The notes under the pieces: model-generated
Seen by the model: only the letters and a program-made list of their open reading frames with translations
The model's database searches: none
What the model was told of the DNA's origin: nothing
Part shown: positions 5,291-42,965 of the stretch, piece by piece
Layout of the letters: every line of letters starts with the position of its first letter
Position numbering within the stretch: position 1 is the stretch's first letter
From: a virus
DNA length: 43,448 bases
Strand: one strand, 5' to 3'
IMG/VR virus record: IMGVR_UViG_3300017408_000001
Coordinates: 1-43,448 of that record
Made by a program: the position numbers and the translations under genes

Positions 5291-6621
5291 TGGTCCTCGA
5301 CGATAGCGGCAGCGGCGGTGCCCGGTCGGGGCAGTTGGCCGCCGTCGGCGTGCGGGTTCATGTCCTGCGTTTCGCGGGCTTCGTTCTGCGTGATCCACGG
5401 CATTCCGCCGCCGGAGCCCAGCGCTCGCGCCAAGAATTCGGCCTGGTCCTTCATCGAGCCGCGCAGCAGCGCGCGCTCATTGAACTTGGCGTAAAGGACG
5501 TCGCCGTTGCGAGCCTGCTTCTCCTGGCGGCTGAGCAGACGCCAGATGGCTTCTTCCCAGGTGACGAACCACGGCAGCAGGCAGTAGACCACCATGTAGA
5601 GGCCCAGCTGCTCGATCCCGCTGCCCCAAGCCGTCTCGTCGAACATGAGCAGCGGGCGCGGAACGCCAGTGAAGCGCGATCCCTGCTCCGCCTCGAACTT
5701 GCGCAGCTCGACAAGCTGTGTGTCCTTGGCCGACCCCGAAAAGGGCTTGGCTTCCATGCCCTCTTCCAAGAGCATCCAGTCGCCCGCGCCGTCGGCGCCA
5801 GCGTAGTCTTCCTTCAAGCTTTCCTTCAGCCGGGCATACGCCTCGTCGCTAAGCGACTCCTTTGCCTGCAGCGCGCCGCCTGCCATCACGCCTTTGCTGA
5901 GCAAGTTTGCCATTGCCCGCTCGGCGATATGCGCGAGCCCGATCGTGTCCGCCGCAACGTCCAGCAAGCCAAGGCCGTGCAAGCCGTCGAGCGAAACCGG
6001 GGCGCGGAAGTGGAACACATCGGCGGACGACAGGTACTCTACGCGGCCATCCTTCGGGGTGTGCTTGAAGCGCAGCGTCCCCCCTGAAAACTCCTTCGTG
6101 ACGGTCTTACGGGCGAACGGCACGAGCGCCTGGATGTTGCCGTTCAGCCGGATCACACGAGCAAAGGCACCGCCGTCCAACAGCGCGGCAAGCTGCAGAA
6201 AACTCTTGAACTCGCTCGGCGTCATGGCGCCGTTGCCGAGCGGATCCAGCTTCAGAACCGACCGGAGCGGATGGTCGATCGCCTTCTCCGTCGTTCCGTC
6301 GGCCTTGCGGCGGTACATGTCGAGCGGCAGCATGCCGATGGAGCCGGCGATCAGCGACGTGGCGCGGAAGAACACCGAGTTCCGCATCGCCATCTTGTCG
6401 CTGATGGCGACGCCGGTCATCGCTTCCCGCCCGCCCCGCAGAAACGAGGCCAGAACCGGATCGCCTTCGCCTGCGATATCGTGCACCGAATAGGCATATA
6501 CCGAGCGCCGGTCGGCAGCCTGGTCTGGTGCTCCGTACCGCACTACGCCGGTCGGTGTGGATCGGCGGTAGCCCGAAGCGCGCCGGTAATCATCGTATGA
6601 CGGCACGCACCCTCCTATCAA
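5287..6621 (-). CDS. Portal protein, HK97 family
   Basis: 444-aa ORF with the typical block ...AMRNSVFFRATSLIAGSIGMLPLDMYRR.... The ORF-track start is TTG at 6621. A GTG at 6606, just after an AGGAGGG RBS, is an alternative, so the start is uncertain. Confidence 0.9.
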   Translation of the reverse strand: MIGGCVPSYDDYRRASGYRRSTPTGVVRYGAPDQAADRRSVYAYSVHDIAGEGDPVLASFLRGGREAMTGVAISDKMAMRNSVFFRATSLIAGSIGMLPLDMYRRKADGTTEKAIDHPLRSVLKLDPLGNGAMTPSEFKSFLQLAALLDGGAFARVIRLNGNIQALVPFARKTVTKEFSGGTLRFKHTPKDGRVEYLSSADVFHFRAPVSLDGLHGLGLLDVAADTIGLAHIAERAMANLLSKGVMAGGALQAKESLSDEAYARLKESLKEDYAGADGAGDWMLLEEGMEAKPFSGSAKDTQLVELRKFEAEQGSRFTGVPRPLLMFDETAWGSGIEQLGLYMVVYCLLPWFVTWEEAIWRLLSRQEKQARNGDVLYAKFNERALLRGSMKDQAEFLARALGSGGGMPWITQNEARETQDMNPHADGGQLPRPGTAAAAIVEDQ

Positions 6622-8432: not shown

Positions 8433-8859
8433 GGTTCTTCAGGTAGCCGCCGCCAGTGCTGCGCGTGACCTTCTTCACCGCCTTGGTGGCGCCCGCTCGT
8501 CGCCGGGGCGACAAGCCAAGCTCCTGTTCCTGGCGATCAGCGTCCGAGCCCGCTTCCCGCATCGCGGTGAAGTACGGGCTCAGCCGTGCGATGGCCTTGG
8601 GATTGCCGCGCTTCGGCTTCAGGACCGCGCCGTTGTCGGCAACTTCGCGCGAGCACCGGTCGAACACGATGTAGGCGAGCACCAGCCGCTGAATGGCGTG
8701 GGCATTTGCCGGAGCAAGGATCTCCCGCTCTTTCATTTCGGTCGTGATCCGCCGCCAGTGCTCGGTCGCGGCGGCAAGCTCGATCTCATCGCTGAGCAGC
8801 AGCGACCAGTCAGGTTCGGGCACGATCGCGCCGGTGCCGTCGATAGGGGTGACAGTCAT
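8425..8859 (-). CDS. terS: Terminase small subunit, P27 family-like
   Basis: 144 aa with an AGGGGG RBS. The pattern ...AIQRLVLAYIVFDRCSREV...GAVLK......NP.....L is typical of P27-family TerS. It lies directly upstream of terL. Confidence 0.8.
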   Translation of the reverse strand: MTVTPIDGTGAIVPEPDWSLLLSDEIELAAATEHWRRITTEMKEREILAPANAHAIQRLVLAYIVFDRCSREVADNGAVLKPKRGNPKAIARLSPYFTAMREAGSDADRQEQELGLSPRRRAGATKAVKKVTRSTGGGYLKNRG

Positions 8860-8977
8860 GTTCCAACCCCCTTTCGAGGCAACTTTTTAGTCTGAATTTT
8901 GCTCTCGCAGCGTACGGAGGGCCGTGACCGGTCTAGGGGGCCGGCCATCCCAGACTTTGACCCGGGGGGTAGTCTGT

Positions 8978-9169
8978 TCAGGTTCGCACCCCGATTTGAT
9001 GAACGTTGCGAGCCTTGGCTGCCTTGCGCTCGGCTGCGCGGCGTCGCTGCCTGGTCATCGTGTCAGGCCATGCCTTGCGAGGCGCAGGGTTGGACAGCAG
9101 GCCCGAGTAGTGGACGCCTGGCCGGCCATACAGGAACTCGTAGTCGGAGGCGGACAGACGCTCGCTCAT
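8978..9169 (-). CDS. Small basic hypothetical protein (63 aa) between HNH and the cos/terS region
   Basis: An AGGAG RBS lies 6 nt before the ATG at 9169. The start overlaps the HNH stop by 1 nt (TGATG). The C-terminus is Arg/Lys-rich (RQRRRAAERKAAKARN). Confidence 0.45.
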   Translation of the reverse strand: MSERLSASDYEFLYGRPGVHYSGLLSNPAPRKAWPDTMTRQRRRAAERKAAKARNVHQIGVRT

Positions 9170-9513
9170 CACTTGCTCCTGTTCCACGGGTGCGCCGGGT
9201 CGAGAGGGCGGCCATCACGGCCCGTGCCGTGCACGATGCCGCTCCGCTCCTCGCGCTGGATCTCGCCATCGTGGTGCGGCTTGCACACAGGCTCCCAGTT
9301 CTTTCGGTCCCAGAACAGCTTCAGGTCGCCCTTGTGTGGCACCTTGTGGTTGACCACCGTGGCCGGCACCGATCGGCCTTGCGCCTCGCACCTTGTGCAG
9401 AGCGGGTGTGCGTCAAGGAACGCCAGCCTGGCCCTCTGCCACTTGCCGCCATAGCCGCGCTCAGTGGATGAGCGCTTGTCGCTGCGCCAGCTGGGCTCGG
9501 GCATGTGAACCAT
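9169..9513 (-). CDS. HNH endonuclease (packaging-associated)
   Basis: Motifs CTRCEAQGR...VNHKVPHKGD...FWDRKNWEPVCKPHHD form a Cys4 plus H-N-H pattern. The start is trimmed to ATG 9513 (or 9504) because the longer ORF runs through the tRNA gene. Confidence 0.85.
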   Translation of the reverse strand: MVHMPEPSWRSDKRSSTERGYGGKWQRARLAFLDAHPLCTRCEAQGRSVPATVVNHKVPHKGDLKLFWDRKNWEPVCKPHHDGEIQREERSGIVHGTGRDGRPLDPAHPWNRSK

Positions 9514-9531
9514 TTCCAAACTGGAAAGCGT

Positions 9532-9605
9532 TGGAGCGACCAGCCGGGTTCGAACCGGCATCATCAGGGTGGAAGCCTGAGGCCCTACCGTTGGACGATG
9601 GTCGC
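9532..9605 (-). tRNA. tRNA-Gly (anticodon UCC) with encoded CCA
   Basis: The reverse complement folds as a 74-nt cloverleaf. Acceptor GCGACCA/TGGTCGC, D arm GTCC-AACGGTA-GGGC, anticodon arm TCAGG-CTTCCAC-CCTGA, variable TGAT, T arm GCCGG-TTCGAAC-CCGGC, discriminator T, CCA. Confidence 0.9.
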
Positions 9606-9756
9606 TTGAGGGGCCTTGCTTCGCCACGGCGGCCGGGACCGTGTAACAACCGGCGGGGCCGGGAGCGAGTTTCGCCGCATTTTGCGGATCAATTCAGGTC
9701 TTGCAGATTGCAGCACCTGAGTTCCGCGACAGAATGGCGCAAAACCGGTTTGCCAA

Positions 9757-9779
9757 AAATCGGACAACCTGACCGATTT
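9757..9779 (-). terminator. Candidate intrinsic terminator upstream of the tRNA and late genes
   Basis: The minus strand reads AAATCGG-tcaggttgt-CCGATTT followed by TTGG. This gives a 7-bp stem whose 3' arm runs into a 5-T tract. It starts 41 nt downstream of the stop of the 9820-10062 gene. Confidence 0.4.
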
Positions 9780-9819
9780 ACGTCCAACATGGACGACAAT
9801 TGCTGAGCAATCCGTCCGA

Positions 9820-10062
9820 TCAGATCGGCTTGAGGATCACCACGACATCGCCGTGCTTATCTTCGGTCACCAGCTCACCGGCCACCGCGATCGGGTTGCC
9901 TGCAGCGTCCGTGACGTACCTGGTGACGGTGCCGCTATCGACGTCATACGCGATCACCTGATGTTGCTCGACGTCGTCGAGGCTGATGATCAGCCGGCGG
10001 GCAAACTCGGGATCAAAGGTTAGGTCGTGAACAGACATGCGGGTAGGGATTGCGTGACGCAT
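9820..10062 (-). CDS. Hypothetical 80-aa protein
   Basis: A GAGG RBS lies 8 nt before the ATG at 10062. The longer ORF-track start has no RBS. Confidence 0.55.
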   Translation of the reverse strand: MRHAIPTRMSVHDLTFDPEFARRLIISLDDVEQHQVIAYDVDSGTVTRYVTDAAGNPIAVAGELVTEDKHGDVVVILKPI

Positions 10063-10186
10063 CTGACCTACCTCGCATCCCTGCCATCGAACATGCTTCC
10101 GCACTCTCGCAGAAGCGCCGCTTCGTCGAGGTGGTGACGAGGGTTGCTACGCCCGATGTGGGCCGGCTTGCCTCTCGCCAGGGTCA

Positions 10187-10819
10187 TCATGTGACCGGAG
10201 CCTGTTCAGGCTGCGCACCTTCTACATGAACCGGTCGGACGTCGCAAGTCTCAACTACGATCTCGCCGAGGAAGCCGCCCAGGTCGATGACGAGCGAGCC
10301 GTTCTTCTTGCTCTCGACCACCTTGGCGGTCAGTCCCTGAAAGGCTGGGCCCTCTACATGAACCGTCTGTCCCAGCACGTAGGACCTGGCTGCATTCGAC
10401 CGACCCTTAGTCCGACGCCGGCCCTTCTTCTTGCGGATACGCTCTAGCCGCGCCCTCTCTTGGGCAGCGACGAAGCCGGTCCACTCGATCGCCTTGTCGA
10501 TCTCAAAGGCGCGCAGCGGATCTAGGCTAGCATCAAGGACCCGACCGTAGGCGCCCTGATGCATCAGCAGCGAGAACGAAGGATGCTGTGAAACTGGCGA
10601 CTGCGCAGCTGCACTGAGACGAGCCGCATCCTCGTAAGGTGCGAAGACGACCCCGGTGAGCAGCGCTATCGGATCATCCCGATATTTGGTCGAGCGCGGG
10701 CGGAACCGGCGCACCATTCCCGTGGGCGCCCACACGTCGAAGCCAGCCGATCGAAGCGAGCGAACGACGGCCAGCGTTCGGCCGCCGGATGTCTGGAGGA
10801 TGCACCAGGACGTGGTCAT
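10187..10819 (-). CDS. NusG/RfaH-like transcription elongation (antitermination) factor
   Basis: The N-terminus looks like an NGN domain (WCILQTSGGRTLAVVRSLRSAGFDVWAP...PIALLTGVVFAPYED). The C-terminus looks like a KOW domain (GQTVHVEGPAFQGLTAKVVESKKNGSLVIDL). The start overlaps the upstream gene as ATGA. Confidence 0.7.
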   Translation of the reverse strand: MTTSWCILQTSGGRTLAVVRSLRSAGFDVWAPTGMVRRFRPRSTKYRDDPIALLTGVVFAPYEDAARLSAAAQSPVSQHPSFSLLMHQGAYGRVLDASLDPLRAFEIDKAIEWTGFVAAQERARLERIRKKKGRRRTKGRSNAARSYVLGQTVHVEGPAFQGLTAKVVESKKNGSLVIDLGGFLGEIVVETCDVRPVHVEGAQPEQAPVT

Positions 10820-11427
10820 GCAAGCGCCTTTGGGGGCCAGACGAACAGCTCGTATTCGTCGACCAGTTTGGATGATGGAAAGCCCAGCCGGCGCAGGCAG
10901 TCGTTCTCGGTATGCAACCGGCTCAGCGATGTTTCACCTCTGTCGCAGTCTGCCCAAGGGCTGAGATCGGTCGTTGTGCCGTAGCGCCAGGCGTGCAGAT
11001 CCTTCGGCAAGTCGGCGGGTCGATCCCGCGCGACAGTCGCGCCTTGTTGGAAACCGCGCCGGTAGGATCGCTCAGCGGCACGCGCAGCCAGCCGAGCCAC
11101 CTCGAGCATCTGCTCGTCGGTCAACGAGCGGAATACGGCCTCGTCGATCCCGTGGGCAATCGAGTAGGCGGTTACGGTATCGCCTGGCGTGGGCGTGATG
11201 TCGATCATGTCGGTCAAGACTTTCTCCGCAGGGTTCGAGGGGATCGGCTGGTCCAGGGCGACCAGATCACGGGCCGCTGCGCTGAGCCGCGTGAATGCGT
11301 TGCGGGATACCTGCCCGGATCGCAGCGCCCGTAGGCTTACGCCGCTCATCTGCGACAGCAGCACCGCCGCGAACTCCTCCGCGCCGTGATCTGGTCGCGC
11401 GGACGGCAGGATCGGGTGCAGGCTCAC
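10816..11427 (-). CDS. Hypothetical protein (203 aa)
   Basis: GTGA-coupled to the upstream gene. GC3-rich ORF in the early-right operon with no recognisable motif. Confidence 0.6.
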   Translation of the reverse strand: MSLHPILPSARPDHGAEEFAAVLLSQMSGVSLRALRSGQVSRNAFTRLSAAARDLVALDQPIPSNPAEKVLTDMIDITPTPGDTVTAYSIAHGIDEAVFRSLTDEQMLEVARLAARAAERSYRRGFQQGATVARDRPADLPKDLHAWRYGTTTDLSPWADCDRGETSLSRLHTENDCLRRLGFPSSKLVDEYELFVWPPKALA

Positions 11428-12029
11428 TTGGCAAACCTCGCTTGGTCGCGCTCGTGGGCCTCGCGCTCACGCCGCCTCTGCGCGCGGGTCGCCGTGGCGA
11501 TCGGATCGGCGAGTGCGGCCTTCATCTGCTCGAGGCGGCTAAGCTGGGTGCGACGCAGGCTTGCAAGGGGATCTGCGTGCTTGCGGATCTCGCCAACGGA
11601 CGGGATGAACCCATGCGGGCTCGTACGAATAGCTTCGTCGATTGCGAACGCGACAATGTCGTGCGGGAGATCGCACAGCAGGTTAGCCGCCTCTGACATC
11701 CACACGGTCAAGGCGCGTTCATCGACGTCACGTGCCACCATGAACATCGTCCAGAGTACGCCCAGCCGTTTGGTAAGCCACTGGTATGAGGGCGGCGTCA
11801 TGGCGATTGCCAAAGTGGTAAGCGTCTCTTCGACCAGATGCTCGACCCCGTTCCGGTGCGCAAAATCAAGGGCATGCTCCGCAGCCCATGCTGGCTGCCC
11901 CCCGTGACGGTATTCACGATCCTCCAGTACCGAGGCGATCAAGGGCTCGACTGACCGCATCGACGGGGCTGCGGGGGCCGCTCGAGGGCCGGCCGCTGAC
12001 GACGGCGAGTTGATTATGTTGTTCGTCAT
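11424..12029 (-). CDS. Hypothetical protein (201 aa), replication module
   Basis: A GAGGGG RBS lies about 10 nt before the ATG at 12029. It overlaps the 3' end of the DUF1376 gene by 116 nt in another frame. Confidence 0.55.
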   Translation of the reverse strand: MTNNIINSPSSAAGPRAAPAAPSMRSVEPLIASVLEDREYRHGGQPAWAAEHALDFAHRNGVEHLVEETLTTLAIAMTPPSYQWLTKRLGVLWTMFMVARDVDERALTVWMSEAANLLCDLPHDIVAFAIDEAIRTSPHGFIPSVGEIRKHADPLASLRRTQLSRLEQMKAALADPIATATRAQRRREREAHERDQARFAK

Positions 12030-22858: not shown

Positions 22859-23115
22859 GATACCCCGACCTCCAATTCCAGTACCCCGCCTTGTGCCACC
22901 AATACCCCCAAGCTGGGGCGGAACAAAGCGAGACGCCTTGGAACTCGGCCTTATCGGAGAAATGGCGGAAAAGCTACCCTCTCGGGACAGTTTGGCATTG
23001 GTTGGAGAGCAGTCTTGGCGGAGCGGGAGCCCATCACAAGGTTAGCGATAATCCGCAGAACTCCGCCATTCGTCCGGCTGTGATCCAGAGTGATACCCCG
23101 ACCGATACCCCGACC
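22859..23115. other. Candidate attP region with arm-type repeats
   Basis: GATACCCCGACC occurs at 22859-22870, 23092-23103 and 23104-23115. Degenerate copies are AGTACCCCGCC (22880) and AATACCCCCAA (22901). The three left-arm TACCCC cores are spaced exactly 21 bp apart, and all copies share one orientation. Confidence 0.55.
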
Positions 23116-23485
23116 CAAAATGAGACGCGGCAGGAAGCTCTGGTTCGTCTGCGACATCGGGATCCAAACTCACGCGCATAACCAGGCCGAGCGTCGCATC
23201 TGGCAGGTGCGATCCTTTCACCCTCTCGACTATCGCCCGCACGTCATAGCCGCGATCCATCTTGCTGCCGATCCAGACGGCGCGGTCCCGGCGCAGGTAG
23301 CCGACGCGGACACCACGGCAGCTGAACACGGCCACCGCCATGCGATCGTGCGGGTTCTCGGGCTCCCGCACCAGATGCACCTGCTCGCCCGGCGCGCATA
23401 GCGCCAGCTCGGCCTGACGGCTGGTGCCGTCCTCGTTGTCAAACCACTCGCCGACCGCCGGCAAGCTGAAGTCGTTCCAACCCAT
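23042..23485 (-). CDS. Stand-alone HIRAN-domain protein
   Basis: GEQVHLVREPENPHDRMAVAVFSCRGVRVGYLRRDRAVWIGSKMDRGYDVRAIV matches the HIRAN pattern (...L.REP.NP.D..A..V....G..IGY...). The low-complexity C-terminal tail (GSGYRSGYHSGS) is encoded by the att-arm repeats. Confidence 0.7.
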   Translation of the reverse strand: MGWNDFSLPAVGEWFDNEDGTSRQAELALCAPGEQVHLVREPENPHDRMAVAVFSCRGVRVGYLRRDRAVWIGSKMDRGYDVRAIVERVKGSHLPDATLGLVMRVSLDPDVADEPELPAASHFGSGYRSGYHSGSQPDEWRSSADYR

Positions 23486-24551: not shown

Positions 24552-25481
24552 TTACCCGTTCGTGACGATCAGTTCACCCGCCCGCTTGCCTTTACCCACG
24601 GTCGCGGTCGCCAGCGTGTAGGTGGTCTGCACCTCGTCGAACGCAAACCGTCCGAACACGTCTCGCGCGCCGGCTGTGTCGTTGATCGACAGAATGAACC
24701 GGCCCGCGATCCCGGCCAGCTGCTCGGCCAGCCGTTCGAAGTCGGCCCGCTCGAACCCGCTGTCGCCATAGTCCGTCTCGCAGTCCCAGTAGGGCGGATC
24801 GAGATAGAACAGGACGTCGGGCCCATCATAGCGTCGGATCAGATCGCTGTAGTTCAGCTGTTCGATCACGACGCCAGCAAGCCGATCGTGGATCTCGGCC
24901 AGCAGCGGCTCCAGCTTGCTCACGTCGAACCGGCCGGGAGTGCGCCGATCGACACCGAAGTTGCGCCCGTTCACCTTGCCGCCGAACGCCAGGCGCTGGA
25001 GGTAGAGGAACCGGGCCGCGCGCTCCAAGTCGGTCAGCGTGCCAGCGTCGACCTTCACCAGCCGCGCGAACTCGGCCCGACTGGTGATCTGCCAACGCAG
25101 CACATCCATGAACTGCGGATAGTGCCGCTGCAGGATGCGGAACAGGTTGGCCACGTCGCCCGACAGGTCGTTGATGACCTCGGCACGTGGCCGGCTGGTG
25201 CGGCGCAGGAACACGCCGCCCATGCCCACGAACGGCTCGACGTAAGTGTTGTGCGGGATGGTGGCAATCTGGGCGACGAGGCGCTGCGCCAGGTTGCGCT
25301 TGCCGCCGACGTAAGGCGCGGCCGGCGAGGCCGGGCGCACAGGCGTAAGGTCCCCTGGAATTCCAAGGCACCCTTCCGAAACGGGAATACCCGTTTCGGC
25401 TTGCGGGAAGTCAACGGGGATTGCCGTAGACGTCTGCTGGTCCCTGCTGATCTGCAGGGACCGATCTTCGATAGACTCCAT
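24552..25481 (-). CDS. dam: Orphan DNA adenine methyltransferase, Dam/D12 class
   Basis: Motifs PYVGGKRNLAQRL (motif X/I region), FVEPFVGMGGVF (AdoMet site) and FYLDPPYW (DPPY catalytic motif). There is a 55-aa N-terminal extension, and an internal GTG start is possible. No adjacent restriction gene was recognised. Confidence 0.9.
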   Translation of the reverse strand: MESIEDRSLQISRDQQTSTAIPVDFPQAETGIPVSEGCLGIPGDLTPVRPASPAAPYVGGKRNLAQRLVAQIATIPHNTYVEPFVGMGGVFLRRTSRPRAEVINDLSGDVANLFRILQRHYPQFMDVLRWQITSRAEFARLVKVDAGTLTDLERAARFLYLQRLAFGGKVNGRNFGVDRRTPGRFDVSKLEPLLAEIHDRLAGVVIEQLNYSDLIRRYDGPDVLFYLDPPYWDCETDYGDSGFERADFERLAEQLAGIAGRFILSINDTAGARDVFGRFAFDEVQTTYTLATATVGKGKRAGELIVTNG

Positions 25482-25859
25482 GATGTGTGGTGCTCATACA
25501 AGCCCCGCCCTGTCAGGGCAGCGGGGCGTTAGCGGCTAGGCCAGCCGCGCGTGACGAGGAGGTGCCCACCACTCGTCGGTTGCCGTGTTAGCGCACGGCA
25601 CCCCCGCTCCGGCCTAAATACGGGATTTGCCCGTAATTAGATGCCAGGCGGACGTGTCTCTTAAGGCGTGGATCCGAACTACCGGGAAATATGCGGTAGT
25701 TGCCTAAAAAATGGCGGTTTTCTGCGGCTTTGACCGTGGATCCGAAGGTGGTGAGTCCGCAGGCCCGAAATGGCAGTGAGCAGCACCCGAAAGCCGCAGA
25801 TTTCTGCGGTTTATAGGGGGTGATCCGACCTGGAGCGCACAACCCCCTTTTCAGGTCTA
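25482..25859. other. 378-bp hairpin-rich non-coding spacer (candidate sRNA/leader/terminator cluster)
   Basis: Stem-loops lie at 25502-25527, 25553-25577, 25581-25600, 25619-25635, 25677-25701, 25794-25809 and 25815-25848 (the last is followed by TTTT on plus). An 11-nt inverted repeat pairs TCTGCGGCTTT (25721) with AAAGCCGCAGA (25790). A 12-nt direct repeat CGTGGATCCGAA lies at 25667 and 25735. No ORF with an RBS is present. Confidence 0.6.
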
Positions 25860-26366
25860 TCACGGTACGGCGATAACGTCGAAGACGATGCCAGCGCCAG
25901 CCACCTTGCGTGGAAATAGCCCCAGGCCACCGATCGACTGATCGATGTAACATTTGATCGTGGCGCCGGTCGTAGTGACGGTGCCGATCACGCCGTAGCA
26001 TTGCGGCACCGCCTGGTCCGCGCTGGTGACGTACTCGGTGATGTCGAGCGCAGGCACGGTCGGCATCGCAGCCCACGTGATCGTTGCCGTGCCGTTCGAC
26101 CCGGTCACCGCTTGCTTGACCGACCGCGTGATCCGAGGCGCCTGCGCGCCGATCGGACGGAACACGAGCGACGGGTCGGCCACTCCTGTCGTAGTCATGT
26201 CGGGCGATGGGATCGTCGTGGCGGGCTGCGGGATCTGCGCGGCGATCGCCGTCACTTCCGACTTCGTCGCAAGCGTGCTCGTGTCGACAGGCTTGGGCAC
26301 GACAGCGAGCTGCGCGTGCGCGGCGCCAGGAAGCGCTAGAGCGAGGGCATAGATCAGATGGCGCAT
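25860..26366 (-). CDS. Secreted hypothetical protein (168 aa)
   Basis: An AAGGAG RBS lies 5 nt before ATG 26366. The N-terminus MRHLIYALALALPGAAHAQ looks like a signal peptide. The rest is Thr/Ala/Pro-rich and looks beta-rich. Confidence 0.6.
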   Translation of the reverse strand: MRHLIYALALALPGAAHAQLAVVPKPVDTSTLATKSEVTAIAAQIPQPATTIPSPDMTTTGVADPSLVFRPIGAQAPRITRSVKQAVTGSNGTATITWAAMPTVPALDITEYVTSADQAVPQCYGVIGTVTTTGATIKCYIDQSIGGLGLFPRKVAGAGIVFDVIAVP

Positions 26367-26380
26367 GGTCACTCCTTGCT

Positions 26381-26629
26381 TTAAGCGGGCGGTCGCCCAA
26401 ACACTGAGAGGTGCAGATCGCGCTGGATCTGCTCGAGCGTGGCCGTAGGCTCGACAAGACAGCGGAACTCAGCCGGACCGCTGAGCAACAAGGCATCGAG
26501 CTGCTTGATGATGTCGCGCATGACGATACGCGGCCCGCTGTAGCGAGGGCTCCCATCCCATAGCTTGATCTTGGCAAGCGCGATCAGCCGCATGTCCGAG
26601 ATGTGTTGCACGTCGTCACGGGTCAGCAT
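26381..26629 (-). CDS. Hypothetical 82-aa cytoplasmic protein
   Basis: A GAGG RBS lies 8 nt before ATG 26629. The ORF-track N-terminal extension overlaps the beta-helix gene. Confidence 0.5.
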   Translation of the reverse strand: MLTRDDVQHISDMRLIALAKIKLWDGSPRYSGPRIVMRDIIKQLDALLLSGPAEFRCLVEPTATLEQIQRDLHLSVFGRPPA

Positions 26630-26712
26630 CGGCCCAGCCTCGTGATCAGCACTACGGCTGTTACCAACACACGGGCGGTGCCGATCGCCAGGCGGTCCAT
26701 GAGCGCGCTCAT
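26623..26712 (-). CDS. Micro-ORF, 29-aa hydrophobic peptide
   Basis: The ATG 26712 overlaps the beta-helix gene stop as ATGA. Its own stop overlaps the next start (ATGCTGA). Encodes MSALMDRLAIGTARVLVTAVVLITRLGRC. Confidence 0.35.
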   Translation of the reverse strand: MSALMDRLAIGTARVLVTAVVLITRLGRC

Positions 26713-28937
26713 CGGGTAACCCCCGCGCTGCGCCTGTCACGCACGTTGCCATCGATGTCCCAAGGTAGGAACTCGTTGTCGTTGGCCGCCATGAGGCCGA
26801 TGACCGGACTTCCCGCCTGGAGCGTGTAGGTGCCGCCGCCCGGCCCAGCCACGCCAGTCGAGCCCGTGTTCGTGGTACCCCGGTAATCGGTCCAGAGGGG
26901 ATCGTTGCGCACCGTGTTGCTGGTGCCGTAGATCGACCCGCGCCCCGCATAGTCCTGCGAGAACACGGCACCCTGGCCCACTACGCCGCCGTCGGCCGCG
27001 ACGTACTGGCTCCAGTTGTAGGCCCAGCCCACGCCATATCGCTGCGACCAGTTGCCCGTAGCGTTCGGAGCATTGGTCGGATCTGGCGTGCCGTTGTTGT
27101 TGGTCGCGACGAAGACGTCGCCCTTCATGTTCACCTGCGTAAAGATGTTCTGACGCACCAGCCACAGCTTGTGCACGCGGCTCTGGGCTCCGCTGGCGAG
27201 CGTACCGTCGACGTAAGCCCAGTTGTGCCGGTGATACTCGTTGAAGCCGGTGAAGGTGTTGTACGCGACGATCAGGTTGGTGACATTCCCGATGCCGCTG
27301 TCTCCGCCAAAGCGGTTCGTATCGGTGGCGGCTGACCCGACGTACTCGGACAGGTTCGAGACGAAGGCGTAGCCTGTCAGGTTGTAGCTCTGCCCGAAGC
27401 CCATCAGCTGATTGGCTACGCGCTGGAACCGATTGAAGGCCGTAATTCCACCATTTGCCGGACGCGCCGACACGTCGCCCAGCGATGCGCCATTCTGGAA
27501 GTTGCTGCCGAGCACGAGATAACCCTCGATCGCGGTCGGCGCCGTGCCGCTGACCGACAAACCTCGCAGCAGACGATCCTCATAGGCGGTCGAAGCGCCA
27601 AGGATGTTGCCCGCCGCGTTCGTGATGGTTAGGCCGTTTGCGGCGATCGAGGTGCTGACCATGGCGGTGGTCTGCCCGGCATTGTCGATCTGGACGTTCT
27701 CGGCGCGAAGGCTCGGACTGGCGCCTGTGGTGGTTCGGGAGAGCTTGATATTGCGATAGAGCAGATAGAGCTGGCGATTGTTGGCGACGGGCGCCGTCAC
27801 CACTGCCGTACTGTCGGCCGGATCCGCCTCGATGGTGAGCGAGCCGCCGTTCGTGTTCTGATACGTGCCGGTGGTCCACGCCGTCGAGTTCGGCACTGAT
27901 CCCTGGATGCGGATGATCGCGCCCGAGGTGACGCCGCCGGTCAGCATCGTCGCGGATTGCAGCGCTCGCGCCGCTCCCGTGGTGCTCGCGAGCGTAGCGA
28001 AGGGATTGGCGCAAGCGGTCGCCGGGTTGGTGGAGACCTTGACCACGCCGCCGCTGGTCGCCCCTGAGGCGAGCACAGCGACATCCACCCCGGTTGTCGC
28101 GTTGACGCACACGTAGGGCGGTGCCGCGGCCTTGGCGGTATCCTTGAAGAAGTACCGCGGGCTGAACTCGCGAGCGACGGCACTGTCCGCTGATCGCAGT
28201 ATCGACGCCGAAGAGCCGACACGTGGGTAGACCTCGGCGTTTACGGTGATCACCGCGCTGTTGGCGAGCGCGCTGATGTCGGTGGCCGGAAGAATATATG
28301 CCTGCACGACGCCCTGGTCGGTGCTGTAGTTCGTCGACTTGCTGATCGTGGGCACGTTGACCGTGATCGTCGTCGTGCCATCGCTAATCAGGTAGCGCAC
28401 GTCGGCGATGCCATTGCGATGGAAGGCTACCACCTCGATCGGCACGACGCTTCCACCGATGGTGTTGCCGACGACCTTCTGGTCGAGCGTGGCGAAGTTG
28501 GCCACGGCCTTGGGGCTGGCCTCGGCCGAGTTGTTGACGACGCCTGGGGCGGTGTCGGTCGAGTAGACGTAATCGGAGAGCGCGACAGTCGAGGCGGTCA
28601 GGCTCGCCTGGTTGGGATAGGGCAGGCGAACGCGCGTGGTGACGTAGACCGTGTCGCTGATCGTCGTCGTGTTGCCCGAGCCGTCGTACCCTTGCCTCGA
28701 CAGCGATAAGGGCAGCGGCGAGCTGATCGACGGCGTCGAGGGCGTGTCAGCCTGCCAGCCACTGCTGGCGATCGAGGCGATCGGGCTTGAGTTGACCGGC
28801 AGGAACGAGCGAAGCAGCTGCATCTGCTGCATGCGAGGCCGGTTGATGATCGACTGCGCGGGACTCGGTGCAACCAAGCCCAGGCCGAAGGCGACAACGA
28901 GCGCATAGAAAAGCGCGAGACAGCGGCGCCGGATCAT
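26709..28937 (-). CDS. Right-handed beta-helix (pectate-lyase-fold) protein with N-terminal signal peptide
   Basis: Start ATG 28937 overlaps the upstream stop as ATGA. The N-terminus is MIRRRCLALFYALVVAFGLGLVAPSPAQS. The body is long and Asn/Gly/Thr/Ser-rich. The C-terminal pattern YTLQAGSPVIGLM......LPWDIDGNVR is typical of parallel beta-helix polysaccharide enzymes. Confidence 0.65.
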   Translation of the reverse strand: MIRRRCLALFYALVVAFGLGLVAPSPAQSIINRPRMQQMQLLRSFLPVNSSPIASIASSGWQADTPSTPSISSPLPLSLSRQGYDGSGNTTTISDTVYVTTRVRLPYPNQASLTASTVALSDYVYSTDTAPGVVNNSAEASPKAVANFATLDQKVVGNTIGGSVVPIEVVAFHRNGIADVRYLISDGTTTITVNVPTISKSTNYSTDQGVVQAYILPATDISALANSAVITVNAEVYPRVGSSASILRSADSAVAREFSPRYFFKDTAKAAAPPYVCVNATTGVDVAVLASGATSGGVVKVSTNPATACANPFATLASTTGAARALQSATMLTGGVTSGAIIRIQGSVPNSTAWTTGTYQNTNGGSLTIEADPADSTAVVTAPVANNRQLYLLYRNIKLSRTTTGASPSLRAENVQIDNAGQTTAMVSTSIAANGLTITNAAGNILGASTAYEDRLLRGLSVSGTAPTAIEGYLVLGSNFQNGASLGDVSARPANGGITAFNRFQRVANQLMGFGQSYNLTGYAFVSNLSEYVGSAATDTNRFGGDSGIGNVTNLIVAYNTFTGFNEYHRHNWAYVDGTLASGAQSRVHKLWLVRQNIFTQVNMKGDVFVATNNNGTPDPTNAPNATGNWSQRYGVGWAYNWSQYVAADGGVVGQGAVFSQDYAGRGSIYGTSNTVRNDPLWTDYRGTTNTGSTGVAGPGGGTYTLQAGSPVIGLMAANDNEFLPWDIDGNVRDRRSAGVTR

Positions 28938-29755
28938 GGCGCGACCCAGCTGTTCGCTACCACGATAGGCGTGCCGGTGGTGAAGGCGTAGAGCGCGGTC
29001 GAAGGCGCGAACAGGAACGTGTACGTCGTGCCTGCCCCGGCACCGCTCGGGATCAACGCATCGTAGCTCGTCGCGCTGCATGCGGTCGCCTGCGTGGTGC
29101 AAAGGAACAGGTTGGCGGTCAGCGCGGCCTCGACCTGGACAGTAAGGCCGATGCGCCCTGACGCGGCCCCGCTGATGCTCGTGGCGGTGCTCGCGGTCAG
29201 TGTGGTGCGGGTCGATGCGGCAAGGCCTTGTGCAGGCGCGAGACCGCCCCGCGTGTCAGTGCTGAGCGCCCGCAGGTTGCCGCTCGGGCCCGTGCCCGCG
29301 ATCTGCTGGGCATAGGCCGGGGCAGCGCCGCCCGGCGTGCCGGTCGATGGCGTGGCGCTGGTCGTGTTGACGGTCCAGGTGCCCGACTGCGTGACCGCGT
29401 GCGTGCCGACTGTCAGCGGCGCCGTGAGCAGGCTCTTCACGTCAATCAGCAGCGCGTTGGTGGAGCCTGCTGCCGGCGATGTCGTCGCGCCAATGCGGTC
29501 GCGGATCGCCTGCTCCGCCGTGATCTGCGTCGTCTGGTTCGCGGCGGAAGCATCGCCGCCCCCGCCACCTCCGCCCCCGCCTCCCGACGTACATGGCGCC
29601 CATGTCGTGCCGCTGTCGGCCGAGCAGAAAGATGCTTGTCCCGGAAGGAAGCCGGCCGGTGCCTTGGCTGTCGTGCCTGGGGCTACCTGGGCGAAGGCTA
29701 CGCACGGAAGAAGGGCAAGCGCCATCGCGCCCGCAATGCGGGTTAGAAATCTCAT
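28934..29755 (-). CDS. Secreted hypothetical protein (273 aa) with Gly10 tract
   Basis: An AAAGGA RBS precedes the start. Signal peptide MRFLTRIAGAMALALLPCVAFAQV. G58-G67 is a run of ten glycines. The rest is Thr/Ala/Ser-rich. Confidence 0.6.
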   Translation of the reverse strand: MRFLTRIAGAMALALLPCVAFAQVAPGTTAKAPAGFLPGQASFCSADSGTTWAPCTSGGGGGGGGGGDASAANQTTQITAEQAIRDRIGATTSPAAGSTNALLIDVKSLLTAPLTVGTHAVTQSGTWTVNTTSATPSTGTPGGAAPAYAQQIAGTGPSGNLRALSTDTRGGLAPAQGLAASTRTTLTASTATSISGAASGRIGLTVQVEAALTANLFLCTTQATACSATSYDALIPSGAGAGTTYTFLFAPSTALYAFTTGTPIVVANSWVAP

Positions 29756-29781: not shown

Positions 29782-30354
29782 TCAGGCGCCCAGAATGATC
29801 TTGGTAAGCAGCGGAAGCACATCGACGCGCTTGGGGCCGATTGGCCGGTAGGACGGCCTGGCCACGCCGCTGTAGACCAGGGCCCGCAGATCGGCCGGCC
29901 ACTTGCCGTCGAAGAACATGGCGCGCTCGATCTTGGCGCGCTCCAGTGCGTTGCCCCGGTCGGTCCAATTCATGAAGCTGGCGCGGCTCTTGTCGCGCTT
30001 GCCGGCGCACCAGTGCTCGACCCAATCGGCAGTTCCAATCGCGCCAAAGTGCCATTGAAACGACAGAGCGGCGGCGAGCTGGATCTCGGTTAGGTCATGT
30101 TCGGCGAAGGCGCGGTGGACGGCCGGGTAGTACTGCTTGCGCATGAGGTCGACGGTCGCGCGCAGGCACGTTTCCAGTGACTGCGGCTTGTCCTTGTACT
30201 GCAGCACGTCGAAACCCGACTTTGTTGAGATCCCGCCCGCCCAGGTCCACACCGGCGGCTTGGCATTGTCCTTGTACGCCTCGAGCACGATGCCCTCGAC
30301 GCTGCAGCAGTACGCGGCAATGCGCGGCGTTAACGCCGTGACGATGATGTCCAT
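29782..30354 (-). CDS. Putative endolysin (lysozyme-like)
   Basis: AAGG lies 7 nt before ATG 30354. SVEGIVLEAYKDNAKPPVWTWAGGIST resembles the E-x8-D-x5-T catalytic arrangement of GH24-type lysozymes. It lies directly after two membrane-protein genes. Confidence 0.6.
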   Translation of the reverse strand: MDIIVTALTPRIAAYCCSVEGIVLEAYKDNAKPPVWTWAGGISTKSGFDVLQYKDKPQSLETCLRATVDLMRKQYYPAVHRAFAEHDLTEIQLAAALSFQWHFGAIGTADWVEHWCAGKRDKSRASFMNWTDRGNALERAKIERAMFFDGKWPADLRALVYSGVARPSYRPIGPKRVDVLPLLTKIILGA

Positions 30355-30400
30355 CAATCTACCTTTCGGGGAGAGCGCGGCGCGATGCCTGCGCGGGGAC

Positions 30401-30784
30401 TTACTTGCCCGTTTTCTTGGGGGAGCAGCGCACTAGGTCGTGGATGCGGTTCAGTCGCGCCCAGACGGCCACCGGGTATCGCTGGCGTAGGACGTTGTAG
30501 AGCATCGACCCCTTGTAGACGAAGGTGGAGAACGCCAGCAGTACGCCCATGCCGGTCACACCGGGCGGCACTGTGGCGCCTTCGCCGGTGCCCCACGACC
30601 AGAGGAAACGCAGGCCAGCGTAGATCAGCACCGAAGAGAAGGCGAAGAACACGTTCAACAGCCACTTGGGCGCTTTGGGGTAGTTCGCCATGCCAGGTTC
30701 GAGCAGGAAGTGCCGCAACAGCCCGCATAGCCCTGCGATGAGGTAGAACAGGCCAGCGAATAGCGAGTTGATCAGTGGGGTCAT
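30401..30784 (-). CDS. Membrane protein (127 aa, 3-4 TM), holin/antiholin candidate
   Basis: ATGA overlap with the upstream holin-like gene. Hydrophobic segments include LFAGLFYLIAGLCGLL, LLNVFFAFSSVLIYAGL and GMGVLLAFSTFVY. Confidence 0.5.
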   Translation of the reverse strand: MTPLINSLFAGLFYLIAGLCGLLRHFLLEPGMANYPKAPKWLLNVFFAFSSVLIYAGLRFLWSWGTGEGATVPPGVTGMGVLLAFSTFVYKGSMLYNVLRQRYPVAVWARLNRIHDLVRCSPKKTGK

Positions 30785-31098
30785 GACTTGGAACCTCCGA
30801 GCTTGAACGACTCTGCCCAGTCGCGGATCTTGCCGACAAAGATTGGAATGAGGGGGTTGCAGACGAGGCCGACCGCAATGGCGAGCGGGAACGGCTCGGG
30901 TTGCACCAGGAACCCCCATCGGTGGCCGAGCGCTGGCACTAGCAAGGGCGCGAGTACGGCACCGGTGAACACCGAAAACAGCAGGACCACGAAAGCGAAC
31001 TTGCCGGGCGGGTCCGCGCTGGCGGCGGCCAGGTACATCGGGAAAGCGTAGATCAACGCACCGATGCCGCCGAAGAGGTAAAGTAGGGGGTTGTTCAT
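30781..31098 (-). CDS. Holin-like membrane protein (105 aa, 3 TM)
   Basis: GGAG lies 5 nt before ATG 31098. Hydrophobic segments: LLYLFGGIGALIYAFPMYLAA, FAFVVLLFSVFTGAVLAPLLV and LAIAVGLVCNPLIPIFV. Confidence 0.5.
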   Translation of the reverse strand: MNNPLLYLFGGIGALIYAFPMYLAAASADPPGKFAFVVLLFSVFTGAVLAPLLVPALGHRWGFLVQPEPFPLAIAVGLVCNPLIPIFVGKIRDWAESFKLGGSKS

Positions 31099-31149
31099 AC
31101 CAACTCCGTGGTGGTTGATCATGTGGCGCGCGGGCTGTAGGAACTAGGG

Positions 31150-32355
31150 CTAGATGCCCGACATCAAGGCAGTGTTCGCCGCCGCGAGTGCGTCCAGCTG
31201 GTACTGGCGCGGCGTACCCACATCGACATTCCACGCATCGATGCCGCTTCCATTCGCGACGTAACCGTAATTCCATAGAGCGGAGAGCGGCACTCGCTCG
31301 CGGACGATCGCTGCCAGCATTGTGGTGAATTGCGCCGTCTCGGCCGCAGCGTCCGCAGTCACACCGGCGTCGCCCCTGATGGCTCCGAACTCTCCAAGGA
31401 ACAGAGGCCGGCCGTGATGCTCCGCCATGGTCTTGAGCAGACCGATCAGCTGATCGGGCGTTGCCTTAGCAAAGGTCTGATCATTCCAGTACCAGAAGGC
31501 CTTGCGTGCTGCCTGGTAAGAATGGGCACACAGCGTATCGAAGCACCTGGGGTTCTCGTATTCCGGCCAAGGCAGCGCGCCCGGTGCGCCGCTCATCCAC
31601 TGGGCATAGGTGTCCAGACCGGCGCTGATGTTGTTGAATTGATTATACCGGTTGGGCAGTGAGATCGCCGCGCCGCTCGACAAAAGTCGCCCATGTGGGT
31701 CATTGGCTCTGACAACCGCGCACCAATCGGCTGCCGCGTTGAAAAGGTCGGCGGTTGTCAGCTGATCGGTAGTGCCGTTGGCATTAGCGGGTGCGGCGGC
31801 GTAACTAGCTGGACCTCCGTCAGCCAAAGGCGGGAAGCTGGCTCGCGGGAAGAGGTCCGCATAGGACTCGTACTCGTTGCCCATTTCCCACCCGAAGATT
31901 GCGGGGCTTTCCGCATATCGCTTCACGAATTCCGCCGTGTACGCACGCATGAACTGGCGCGTGTTGGAGGCTGGGTTGCCCCACTGGCCGATCGTATCGC
32001 GCTTGCCGGCCGAGGTGAAAGCCATAAGATCACAGGTGGTCGCGTGGCGCCAGAACATGGACGGGATGAGACCGATGCCGGCACTCTCGGCCGCGCTGAC
32101 GATCGCTGCGTTCTTCGCCCACCATCCCGCCGGGTTTGTGAGGTACTGCCGCCAGCCCGCATTGCCATTGGCGCCTGCCTCGAACTGCCCGGCGTTGTAC
32201 CGCACGAAGGGTACACCTTTGGCAGCTAGCAAAGCAAACTGCTGTGCAAGGTCATCGTGATTGAACAGGCTGTAGAAGTTGAGCCCAATAGCGCGGTACG
32301 GCCTGCCGCCCTTCAGGATTTGCGAGCGCGAGGCGGAAAGTCCGAGACGGGTCAT
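31150..32355 (-). CDS. Glycoside hydrolase family 5-like enzyme (candidate virion depolymerase)
   Basis: IFGWEMGNEY (acid/base NE motif) and RPLFLGEFGA (nucleophile Glu motif) sit in a TIM-barrel-like order. ATGA-coupled to the upstream tail-module gene. Confidence 0.7.
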   Translation of the reverse strand: MTRLGLSASRSQILKGGRPYRAIGLNFYSLFNHDDLAQQFALLAAKGVPFVRYNAGQFEAGANGNAGWRQYLTNPAGWWAKNAAIVSAAESAGIGLIPSMFWRHATTCDLMAFTSAGKRDTIGQWGNPASNTRQFMRAYTAEFVKRYAESPAIFGWEMGNEYESYADLFPRASFPPLADGGPASYAAAPANANGTTDQLTTADLFNAAADWCAVVRANDPHGRLLSSGAAISLPNRYNQFNNISAGLDTYAQWMSGAPGALPWPEYENPRCFDTLCAHSYQAARKAFWYWNDQTFAKATPDQLIGLLKTMAEHHGRPLFLGEFGAIRGDAGVTADAAAETAQFTTMLAAIVRERVPLSALWNYGYVANGSGIDAWNVDVGTPRQYQLDALAAANTALMSGI

Positions 32356-42113: not shown

Positions 42114-42153
42114 GATACAGGGCGCAAATACGAACCAAGGGACTCGGGTCGAT

Positions 42154-42501
42154 ATGATGCGGTGGATTTTCGCGGCTGCAGCGCTGACGGCACAACCAGC
42201 GGTGGCAGCGCCGACCTACTTGAACTGCTCGGTGGACAACGAGACTTCGGTGGCGAAGATCGACATTGCGCTAGACGAACAAGCCCAAACCGCCGTTTTT
42301 TCTTCACCTGCAGAAGGGAAGACCCAGACGCGAGCTGCCGCCTTCACAGCGCAGAGCGTCACTATTCCCGACACGGTCTTTACATGGACGATCGACCGCG
42401 TGTCTCTGGCGCTCACCAGAGTGACGACCATAGGTGAGAAGCGTTGGGACGACCGCGGCCAGTGCAAGATCGCGCCGGTGCCGGCGAACCGCGCCTTCTA
42501 A
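42154..42501 (+). CDS. Secreted 115-aa protein encoded antisense to the late operon (moron)
   Basis: Signal peptide MMRWIFAAAALTAQPAVAAP and two Cys residues. Local GC is lower (a TTTTTTCTTC run). Its stop overlaps the convergent stop of the chaperone T frame (CTAA). Confidence 0.6.
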   Translation: MMRWIFAAAALTAQPAVAAPTYLNCSVDNETSVAKIDIALDEQAQTAVFSSPAEGKTQTRAAAFTAQSVTIPDTVFTWTIDRVSLALTRVTTIGEKRWDDRGQCKIAPVPANRAF

Positions 42502-42965
42502 CCGAGAAGCATCCGCAACTTCTCGACTTCGACCTGCTTTTCGCGCTCGGTAACCGGCGCTCGCCATGGTGGCGGGCAGTTCTCATCCTCGGCACGTCGG
42601 CCTTCGGTCAGGTACTCCATCGACAACTTGCGGAGCAGCCTGATCTCCCACCGGGCAAGGTGGATACCCATCGCGTCCTGCCAACCCTTGATGCTCTGCC
42701 AGCTGATCGGGCCTGCGCCCATGCCGGCCACCTCTGTCAGTCCGATCTCCAGTAAGCGAGCCAGGATGTGCGGAGCAGGATTGGACGGCATGGCCGGAAC
42801 GATGCCATCCCGCTTCATCTGCTCCACACGACTGACTGGTGGCGGCTGATTGTCCGCCTTCGCCCGCTTGCTACCCTCTGCCGGCTTCGGCGTGGCATTG
42901 AGCCACGCCATGTGCCGGACGTAGAGCGTCAGGCCTCGGTCGACGCGGGCTTGAAGTTTCCCCAA
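42498..42965 (-). CDS. Tail assembly chaperone T segment (expressed as G-T fusion by -1 frameshift)
   Basis: The ORF is in the -1 frame relative to 42929-43348 and overlaps it by 37 nt. There is no convincing independent RBS, and the ORF-track start is TTG inside the slippery site. Confidence 0.6.
   Translation of the reverse strand: MGKLQARVDRGLTLYVRHMAWLNATPKPAEGSKRAKADNQPPPVSRVEQMKRDGIVPAMPSNPAPHILARLLEIGLTEVAGMGAGPISWQSIKGWQDAMGIHLARWEIRLLRKLSMEYLTEGRRAEDENCPPPWRAPVTEREKQVEVEKLRMLLG

Follow-up and report, generated by a model that had tools for sequence, protein, structure and literature searches.

Why would a tailed phage encode, directly behind its lysis genes, a run of proteins that begin with export signals, and do such proteins belong to the virion, to lysis or to the management of the host surface? 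The question is raised by a cassette of five open reading frames (ORFs), here called A to E, at positions 25,860 to 29,755 of the virus record IMGVR_UViG_3300017408_000001, which was analysed over its whole 43,448 nucleotides (nt; this stretch is the window, and positions given without another locus name refer to it). The window is a 43.4-kb genome of temperate siphovirus type with about 63% G+C, and the phage is a temperate HK97-type siphovirus infecting a sphingomonad. An earlier note on this DNA had suggested a lysogenic-conversion or surface-polysaccharide module rather than virion parts. The five ORFs are tightly coupled on the minus strand 3' of the endolysin gene, with the coordinates and the ATGA/ATGCTGA overlaps exactly as that note had given them:

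29782..30357, minus strand: endolysin (Phage_lysozyme E = 5.7e-6; phrog_7 E = 3.9e-9)
28934-29755, minus strand: gene A, 273 amino acids (aa), with an AAAGGA ribosome-binding site, starting 27 nt after the endolysin stop
26709-28937, minus strand: gene B, 742 aa, its start overlapping the A stop (ATGA)
26623-26712, minus strand: ORF C, 29 aa, with an ATGA junction to B and an ATGCTGA junction to D
26381-26629, minus strand: gene D, 82 aa, without a signal peptide
25860-26366, minus strand: gene E, 168 aa, with an AAGGAG ribosome-binding site

We propose that this cassette encodes an exported, non-virion complex, built from the parts of receptor-binding proteins and acting on capsule or exopolysaccharide. 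For this reading with its full mechanism we estimate a probability of about 0.45, and it is put forward tentatively; the broader statement within it, that the cassette supplies exported proteins targeting a polysaccharide, is highly likely.

The first support comes from the N-termini. Signal peptides were called with a heuristic rule set comprising a basic n-region, an uncharged hydrophobic core of 7-15 or more residues and small residues at positions -3 and -1. A, B and E each combine a basic n-region with an uncharged hydrophobic core of 9-17 residues and a small-x-small site before a Gln, and the predicted cleavage sites of all three were classed as A-x-A before Q:

29690..29755, minus strand: signal peptide of A, residues 1-22, MRFLTRIAGAMALALLPCVAFA followed by Q, cleaved between AFA and Q23; modelled as a helix at 4-14 and then a low-confidence linker
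28857..28937, minus strand: signal peptide of B, residues 1-27, MIRRRCLALFYALVVAFGLGLVAPSPA followed by Q, cleaved between SPA and Q28; with an RRxhh twin-arginine-like motif; residues 1-40 are modelled at low confidence except for a helix at 5-15
26313-26366, minus strand: signal peptide of E, residues 1-18, cleaved between AHA and Q19

Applied to the credible genes of the window, the rule-based scan flagged B and E alone, its remaining matches lying antisense to known genes; the Gly/Ala-rich frame of A failed the gene filter of the scan, which uses G+C content at third codon positions (GC3), and the signal of A was checked by eye. That three signal proteins among about 52 genes should all fall inside one five-gene block has a chance of about 10/22100, or about 5e-4, and conservation in orthologues is a stronger argument for the signals than this figure. 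Indeed, the signals are kept in the orthologues of the related loci L002, L007, L010, L014 and L015 despite 45-60% identity. The Ala at -1 of A (A22) is at least 90% conserved and is one of two near-invariant columns in the 47-member family alignment, and a signal-like N-terminus is found in 67 of the 73 representatives that have the C-terminal domain of A. Two conserved Cys pairs in A, one of which staples a modelled hairpin, also speak for export. The statement that three of the five ORFs begin with signal peptides is therefore borne out, by canonical features under heuristic rules and by conservation in diverged orthologues, and A, B and E are very probably exported. Two further cysteine features were considered and set aside: the Cys in the signal peptide of A was rejected as a lipobox, having Pro at -1 and not being conserved, and a conserved Cys pair of B was dropped as evidence of export, occurring only in the window and P0002 and being absent from the signal-bearing homologues P0003 and P0004.

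The route of export is less uniform than the label "classical Sec-type", given to all three by the earlier note, would have it. The signals of A, B and E agree with the rules for Sec, but for B the label may be wrong because its n-region, RRRCL, fits the motif of the twin-arginine translocation (Tat) pathway; the core of B is very hydrophobic, favouring Sec. RRxhh is found in 8 of 14 partner enzymes, B included, against 5 of 175 proteins of the A superfamily, and the enzyme of L009 and L016 bears a canonical Tat signal, MMKRRDFLAGLAALL (KRRDFLAG). Because RRxhh is so enriched in the partner enzymes, export in the folded state by Tat, for spike-type enzymes that fold in the cytoplasm, is a real possibility.

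The second support comes from the family of B, which comprises at least 120 homologue clusters. Export signals occur in just 8 of 120 B homologues. At the N-terminus of 27-35 of the 120 there are instead three or more repeats of a hydrophobic residue followed by G, A or S (mean of 0.4 in control windows), with a Gly/Pro linker next; MNLGLGLGL and MIGIGIGIS are examples. In the gene transfer agent of Rhodobacter capsulatus (RcGTA), residues 2-10 of the head fibre Rcc01080, IALGLGLGL, bind a pentamer of the jelly-roll base Rcc01079 (Bardy et al. 2020, PMC7296036), and the head fibre binds capsule (PMC10218006). A B homologue in L006 (Novosphingobium G106) comes directly after a spike-base gene (NF048002, "spike base protein, RCAP_Rcc01079 family", E = 1.2e-31), and a spike-base homologue lies near the B homologue of L005 (a Paracoccaceae contig). 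Both loci are within Wzy/Wzz/glycosyltransferase clusters for capsule or exopolysaccharide, a setting that resembles R. capsulatus, where rcc01079-80 adjoin capsule genes. Furthermore, the B homologue P0116 has a tail-fibre N-terminal domain and lies in a tail module, and a signal-less B homologue is found 3' of the lysis genes in L003 (Sphingobium sp. B2 prophage).

On account of these N-termini and contexts we place B in a capsule-recognising receptor-binding family, which, judged by its sequences, is that of gene-transfer-agent head spikes and phage tails and not one of generic secreted enzymes. B itself has no (hydrophobic-Gly)n anchor and carries a signal peptide in its place, and no spike-base gene (NF048002) was found in the window; in the clade of the window the virion anchor has been replaced by an export signal. 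This replacement, together with the lack of a spike-base gene in the phage, makes it unlikely that A, B and E are ordinary parts of the virion, in keeping with the "rather than virion parts" of the earlier suggestion. Two side observations belong to the same family. At 13136-15276 of L005 the genes for the spike-base homologue and for a Beta_helix protein of 505 aa form a divergent pair, with the B homologue 3 kb off, and this locus may encode two alternative spike fibres. P0051 (889 aa) has an N-terminal HK97-type capsid domain (PF05065) fused to a B-type body from about B residue 168 onwards, and could be a chimera of gene calling or assembly or a real capsid-linked fibre.

The comparison with the RcGTA head spike can be drawn closely. 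In both, the gene for a small jelly-roll protein is followed by that for a beta-rich protein, capsule-binding in RcGTA; many B homologues have the same (hydrophobic-Gly)n kind of anchor, and a short N-terminal peptide is the conserved, presumably docking, element. Unlike in the head spike, both partners of the window bear export signals, the place of the five-point-star anchor is taken by an N-R-P peptide behind the cleavage site, there is no spike-base gene, and the jelly-roll of A has no detectable homology to the base. B is also larger (742 aa against 325 aa for Rcc01080), with an additional beta-helix-like domain; the likeness runs through the N-termini and contexts of its homologues. AlgL and ExoK are exported glycanases encoded in exopolysaccharide clusters, and B shares with them the signal peptide and a presumed activity on a polysaccharide inside the periplasm or outside it, and has homologues in Wzy/Wzz-type clusters. 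Unlike AlgL and ExoK, those cluster-encoded homologues are signal-less and have the head-fibre anchor, for which reason they are probably gene-transfer-agent spike fibres and not glycanases.

The body of B is consistent with action on a polysaccharide. Its AlphaFold2 model, with 98 homologues as alignment, has a predicted local distance difference test score (pLDDT) of 89.6 and a predicted template modelling score of 0.89, and two regions stand out:

28143..28775, minus strand: N-terminal beta-sandwich region of B, about residues 55-265, pLDDT 94-98; the best-conserved part of the family, with many near-invariant residues
27138..27920, minus strand: beta-helix-like region of B, about residues 340-600, with short strands every 20-30 residues

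The sandwich region forms two domains with weak Foldseek matches to tandem FN3/Ig domains. In the beta-helix-like region an Asn ladder of N502, N528, N560 and N597, each at least 90% conserved, stands in h-h-x-x-N-x-h contexts, and E531, R570, N572, Y575 and K605, invariant in the family, are candidate catalytic residues. Foldseek of the full model against PDB and BFVD gave nothing below E = 0.03, the best non-significant matches being the pectate lyases 3vmv (E = 0.033) and 2qy1 and the tailspike depolymerase 8oq0 (E = 0.07); no Pfam (Beta_helix and Pectate_lyase included), NCBIfam or PHROG family matched B, and the family profile found no relative among PDB sequences. The earlier description of a right-handed beta-helix enzyme thus has a confident model and the Asn ladder on its side and no significant fold or curated-family match, and we regard a polysaccharide-active beta-helix as plausible. 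The slot of B is filled in other cassettes by SGNH esterases and other beta-rich enzymes, and this, with the model, suggests that B probably acts on a polysaccharide.

B resembles in this respect the depolymerases of tailspikes and tail fibres, such as gp48 of Acinetobacter phage APK09 (PDB 8oq0), with which it shares the beta-helix-like body, the Asn ladder, a distal domain exchanged behind a conserved N-terminal peptide and relatives in tail modules. In contrast to them, B has an export signal where they have a particle-binding N-terminal domain, its fold matches stay at E >= 0.03, and neither Beta_helix nor Pectate_lyase of Pfam is recognised.

The hallmark of the cassette is A, which from its sequence and model appears to be an exported fibre-like protein. 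The model (mean pLDDT 76.6; 94-98 over residues 178-271) runs from the signal helix through a hairpin, with the conserved Cys pair on its two strands, a poly-Gly hinge and two helices to a C-terminal jelly-roll:

28937..29272, minus strand: jelly-roll domain of A, about residues 162-273; conserved more strongly than any other part of the cassette, and containing an invariant pair of Cys

This domain has a mean column identity of 79% across 13 relatives, and its Foldseek matches (E of about 1e-3) are the cement protein of phage KHP40, Ena spore-appendage subunits, the TNF-like N-domain of the lectin BC2L-C, and cupins. Close homologues of A form 53 clusters, of which all that are named are sphingomonad and nearly all bear signals. 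A profile search of 1.84 billion representatives gave 964 matches at E <= 1e-3 and 182 at E <= 1e-10. By tblastn against 50,697 phage records A has no match, and B matches three records only. A and E were also considered as paralogues of the tail proteins or tail-fibre tip of the phage itself, an idea that was given up as no similarity was found; B likewise has no paralogue among these tail proteins. Beside these stand P0207, P0208, P0226, P0228, P0230 and P0233, proteins of 1100-2150 aa, mostly with a signal-like N-terminus, in which the central "GGG-DASAANQ..." motif of A occurs in 9-14 copies; their sequences suggest that a wider class of secreted fibrous proteins shares the stalk repeat of A.

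The third support is the behaviour of the cassette in related genomes. The arrangement of A, an enzyme and, in some, E is found in the window and in at least ten related loci (L002, L007, L009, L010-12, L013, L014, L015, L016 and L017). A is always followed by a protein of exported type, with a signal, and the catalytic type of this protein varies:

Window, L002 and L007: B-type protein
L009 and L016: 483-aa beta-rich protein with a canonical Tat signal
L010-12, L013 and L015: one or two SGNH esterases
L014 and L017: unrelated proteins of roughly 460-510 aa

L015 is syntenic with the window (tail protein with GH5, holin, lysozyme, cassette, D12 methylase, integrase) and has an esterase at the place of B, from which it follows that the enzyme slot is exchanged between related phages. 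L015 also bears on the earlier idea that the cassette and the GH5 enzyme of the tail module form a matched pair: both are present there too, which fits the idea loosely. Scans for the cassette in species-representative genomes, IMG/VR and Joint Genome Institute metagenomes gave 1, 1 and 2 loci, a low yield that is due to the strict search patterns, and in the literature on signal-peptide depolymerases and exclusion, on prophage cargo of sphingomonads and on phages Ssp-JY42 and Yong-M4-211 the cassette was not found described.

What the exchanged enzymes share is a short peptide behind the signal, represented in B by one putative element:

28824..28850, minus strand: post-cleavage peptide of B, residues 30-38, IINRPRMQQ, putative docking peptide

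The motif x-h-N/F-R/K-P-x-h-x-Q/R follows the predicted cleavage site in 8 of 10 enzymes encoded behind an A-type gene, whatever their catalytic domain, and the N-R-P motif occurs in none of the three enzymes with other types of upstream partner. We infer, by analogy with the head spike, that this N-terminal peptide of the enzyme is held by the jelly-roll of A. As a homologue of the spike base the jelly-roll was rejected, hhalign giving a probability of 0.2%, and the docking model is for this reason kept as an analogy only.

The small members of the cassette fit this picture unequally. E appears from its sequence to be a second small exported fibre-like protein: seven clusters were found in a close-homologue search, diverged signal-bearing E-like genes close the cassette in L002, L009, L010 and L015, and E-like proteins show tail-fibre-like motifs. 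D is 67% identical to an 86-aa ORF in the same slot of L009 (enzyme, D, E), which marks it by sequence as a conserved cassette member; it has no signal peptide, as its earlier description as cytoplasmic implied, and no match in Pfam, NCBIfam, PADLOC or PDB sequences, with a non-significant one (E = 0.33) in PHROG. Scans of A, B, D and E against Pfam, PHROGs, NCBIfam and PADLOC altogether gave nothing meaningful. No related locus has a homologue of C, and L009, with a homologous cassette, has a 157-nt non-coding spacer where C would sit. The idea that C is a conserved membrane peptide was consequently rejected; the "29-aa membrane micro-ORF" is a doubtful gene and may not be a gene at all.

The expression of the cassette is best read from its neighbourhood. 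Scans for sigma-70 promoters and, with strict settings, for terminators gave nothing on the minus strand, and A to E have the same GC3 (0.77-0.83) as the structural genes of the phage. Behind E lies one further element:

25794..25847, minus strand: structured element of two hairpins, 13-66 nt beyond the stop of E, its second hairpin followed by CUUUC

Its RNA folds at -38.3 kcal/mol (z = -4.28, with 0 of 200 shuffles as stable), and it is probably the end of the transcription unit. The coupling to the endolysin gene, the lack of a promoter, the phage-like codon usage and the terminator-like element after E make late co-transcription the simplest reading, in which the cassette would be the tail end of the late transcript. 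It lies at the integrase-proximal end of the late operon, the usual place of cargo genes. Of the two halves of the earlier suggestion, exported surface-polysaccharide proteins remain the best-supported reading, and lysogenic expression does not hold up as well since late co-transcription is simpler.

The model we favour runs as follows. The cassette genes would be transcribed together with the lysis genes, and A, B and E would cross the inner membrane, B via Sec or Tat, and fold in the periplasm. There the N-R-P peptide at the mature N-terminus of B would dock onto the conserved jelly-roll of A, as the N-terminus of a head fibre does into its jelly-roll base. A would provide a disulfide hairpin, a Gly hinge, a helical stalk and the jelly-roll knob, and B the recognition, and probably also the cleavage, of capsule or exopolysaccharide. 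The complex would bind and trim the surface polysaccharide of its own producer and be freed at lysis, and the outcome would be receptor destruction or capsule stripping, whereby progeny may escape more readily or re-adsorb less to debris, or superinfection may be curbed.

Several points weigh against this proposal. The main unexplained one is the repeated placement in tail modules: L008, L018 and L019 carry a signal-bearing B homologue, each with a small signal-bearing partner in front of it, inside the tail module, the expected place of receptor-binding proteins of the virion. L008 is the isolated Synechococcus phage Ssp-JY42 (PP438432.1), whose genes at 8178-12026 encode a jelly-roll-like protein of 138 aa and a B homologue of 786 aa, both with signals, and a beta-helix-like protein of 351 aa; these genes have an alphaproteobacterial flavour that is odd for a cyanophage record. 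In L009 the cassette is an isolated unit, lying on the opposite strand in the midst of replication genes with a spacer of 253 bp upstream of it, an arrangement that resembles independent, possibly lysogenic, expression, and the integrase-proximal position of the cassette in the window fits lysogenic conversion equally well. The analogy between the jelly-roll of A and the spike base lacks detectable homology behind it, and with no significant fold or family match marking it as an enzyme, B could be a lectin. Phage Yong-M4-211 has the same arrangement as Ssp-JY42, and no publication or proteome was found for either phage.

The best survivor among the alternatives is lysogenic conversion, which we consider unlikely though a serious competitor: the complex would be expressed from the prophage and trim or mask the capsule or exopolysaccharide of the lysogen, giving superinfection exclusion or a changed host surface. 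In the window, L002, L010, L014 and L015 no other unit stands between the cassette and either the methylase and integrase or the end of the prophage, and the copy of L009 is stand-alone and oppositely oriented, with its own 253-bp upstream region. L002, with the closest homologue of B, also has an Acyl_transf_3 protein of O-antigen-acetylase type (6572-7630), and the enzyme is swapped among otherwise syntenic phages, as expected of a function that tracks host surface types. The L002 acyltransferase, a membrane protein, lies between a pectate-lyase-like tailspike and the lysis genes and is in itself a classical surface-modifying conversion gene. Known integrase-proximal conversion genes, such as gtrABC, oac and wzy/iap of phage D3, encode inner-membrane transferases and have their own promoters. 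The cassette shares with these the position at the prophage end by the integrase and a presumed action on the host surface polysaccharide that is the phage receptor. It differs in that its proteins are soluble, of fibre and enzyme types with export signals, and are coupled to lysis without a detected promoter; no sigma-70-like promoter lies upstream of A, the gap to the endolysin is just 27 nt, and the equivalent genes of L008, L018 and L019 are inside tail modules.

This same tail-module placement of signal-bearing B homologues keeps a virion-related role alive, one that we judge distinctly improbable. A, B and E would fold in the oxidising periplasm and join the particle at lysis or travel as free helpers, or their N-termini would be uncleaved assembly anchors. 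It would suit a family that consists of virion head and tail fibres, the stalk-plus-knob fibre architecture of A, whose central motif is found in 9-14 copies in giant fibre-like proteins, the tail-fibre-like motifs in E-like proteins, and the combination of an N-terminal peptide that is conserved and a distal domain that varies, a pattern classic for swappable receptor-binding proteins. Besides the tail-module homologues of L008, L018 and L019, a depolymerase-like protein with a signal is encoded ahead of the lysis genes in L003. This latter protein (507 aa; 6018-7541 of L003) has a canonical signal peptide and a weak Phage_depo_C match and lies in the tail module. Against this role, tailed-phage particles assemble in the cytoplasm, and we know of no precedent for the periplasmic loading of a tailed phage. 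Moreover, the cleavage sites are textbook ones and some signals are canonical Tat signals, neither a spike base nor anything else recognisable as a partner for docking on the particle is encoded in the window, and neither A nor E resembles the tail proteins of the phage. Taken further, the repeated tail-module placement would lead to a long shot, namely that some alphaproteobacterial tailed phages run an extracytoplasmic branch in the making of receptor-binding proteins. These would leave the cytoplasm through Sec or Tat, form disulfides and fold in the periplasm into a complex of base and enzyme, in which the jelly-roll of A grips the N-R-P peptide of an exchangeable enzyme, and meet the particles only at lysis, by loading or as free capsule-stripping satellites.

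The earlier note had offered as its alternative that the exported proteins weaken the outer membrane or capsule from the periplasm, replacing spanins. No recognisable i-, o- or u-spanin was found in the lysis region of the window, and many phages lack recognisable spanins anyway. A lipobox o-spanin ORF is absent from the lysis regions of the window, L002, L007, L010, L014, L015 and L018 (seven signal-bearing loci, six with a post-lysis cassette), and L003, the one cassette-less prophage examined, has a lipobox ORF, as Sphingomonas phage Scott has annotated spanins beside its holin homologues; over so small a sample this correlation is weak. The cassette does lie directly 3' of the holin and endolysin genes and is, like spanins, predicted to act outside the cytoplasm, and the SGNH esterases of some versions recall LysB of mycobacteriophages. 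We nevertheless judge this role very improbable, because A, B and E, left after cleavage without a membrane anchor or lipid modification and lacking the lipobox or the periplasm-spanning coiled coil of spanins, cannot bridge the periplasm in the way of spanins, and because their domains are large, beta-rich and of sugar-binding type, the relatives of B bind capsule and not membrane (PMC10218006), and L009, L018 and L019 keep these genes away from the lysis genes.

The wider setting of the cassette is that of a phage gene order on the minus strand:

Minus strand, first part: DnaB; large terminase, portal, ClpP-type protease, HK97-fold capsid
Minus strand, second part, past the window ends: 1687-aa tape measure, 963-aa tail-tip/fibre protein, two small unknowns
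Minus strand, third part: stand-alone GH5 protein, two three-helix membrane proteins, lysozyme-family endolysin, the five cassette ORFs
Minus strand, fourth part: D12 methyltransferase, 147-aa protein, tyrosine integrase
30401-31122, minus strand: the two three-helix, holin-like proteins of the lysis region

Among deposited phages Sphingomonas phage Scott is the sole relative at the DNA level, with similarity confined to the holin-like genes, and close relatives at the protein level come from Sphingomonas, Sphingobium, Novosphingobium and Rhizorhabdus. The GH5 protein (31150-32355, minus strand, 401 aa), between the tail genes and the holins, has neither a signal peptide nor an obvious virion-binding N-terminus; L015 has its GH5 domain within a longer tail-module protein of 800 aa (5550-7952). 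A gap of 385 nt (42114-42497) separates the putative tail-chaperone gene (42498-42965) from the tape-measure start (42113), and an 83-aa minus-strand frame in it may be a frameshift extension of G-T type. A plus-strand ORF with a signal-like N-terminus (42154-42501) was treated as spurious, as it is antisense in this gap, where a frameshift extension is expected. Between cassette and integrase, 24552-25481 encodes an adenine methyltransferase of the D12 class (309 aa), for which no partner nuclease was seen, and the 147-aa protein (23042-23485, minus strand) matches the PADLOC candidate defence family PDC-M03B (best E = 2.5e-7).

On present evidence the cassette is not categorically new; it is a variant that combines phage depolymerases or spike fibres with surface-modifying prophage cargo. 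The family of B, uncharacterised so far, could be annotated from its sequences as the fibre partner of the RcGTA-type spike base. If the exported complex proposed here is real, phages turn their own receptor-binding modules into exported tools by trading the virion anchor for a Sec or Tat signal, and the swappable, conserved-anchor architecture of receptor-binding proteins is kept outside the particle. The cassette would also supply new polysaccharide-active enzymes and esterases, predicted to be secreted naturally and matched to hosts of industrial interest, and it is a testable system for receptor-destroying activity, superinfection exclusion and the maturation of tailed-phage components outside the cytoplasm. 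Finally, with 964 A-type representatives and at least 120 B clusters, it gives a family-level handle on how temperate phages manage their receptors in capsule- and sphingan-producing sphingomonads.

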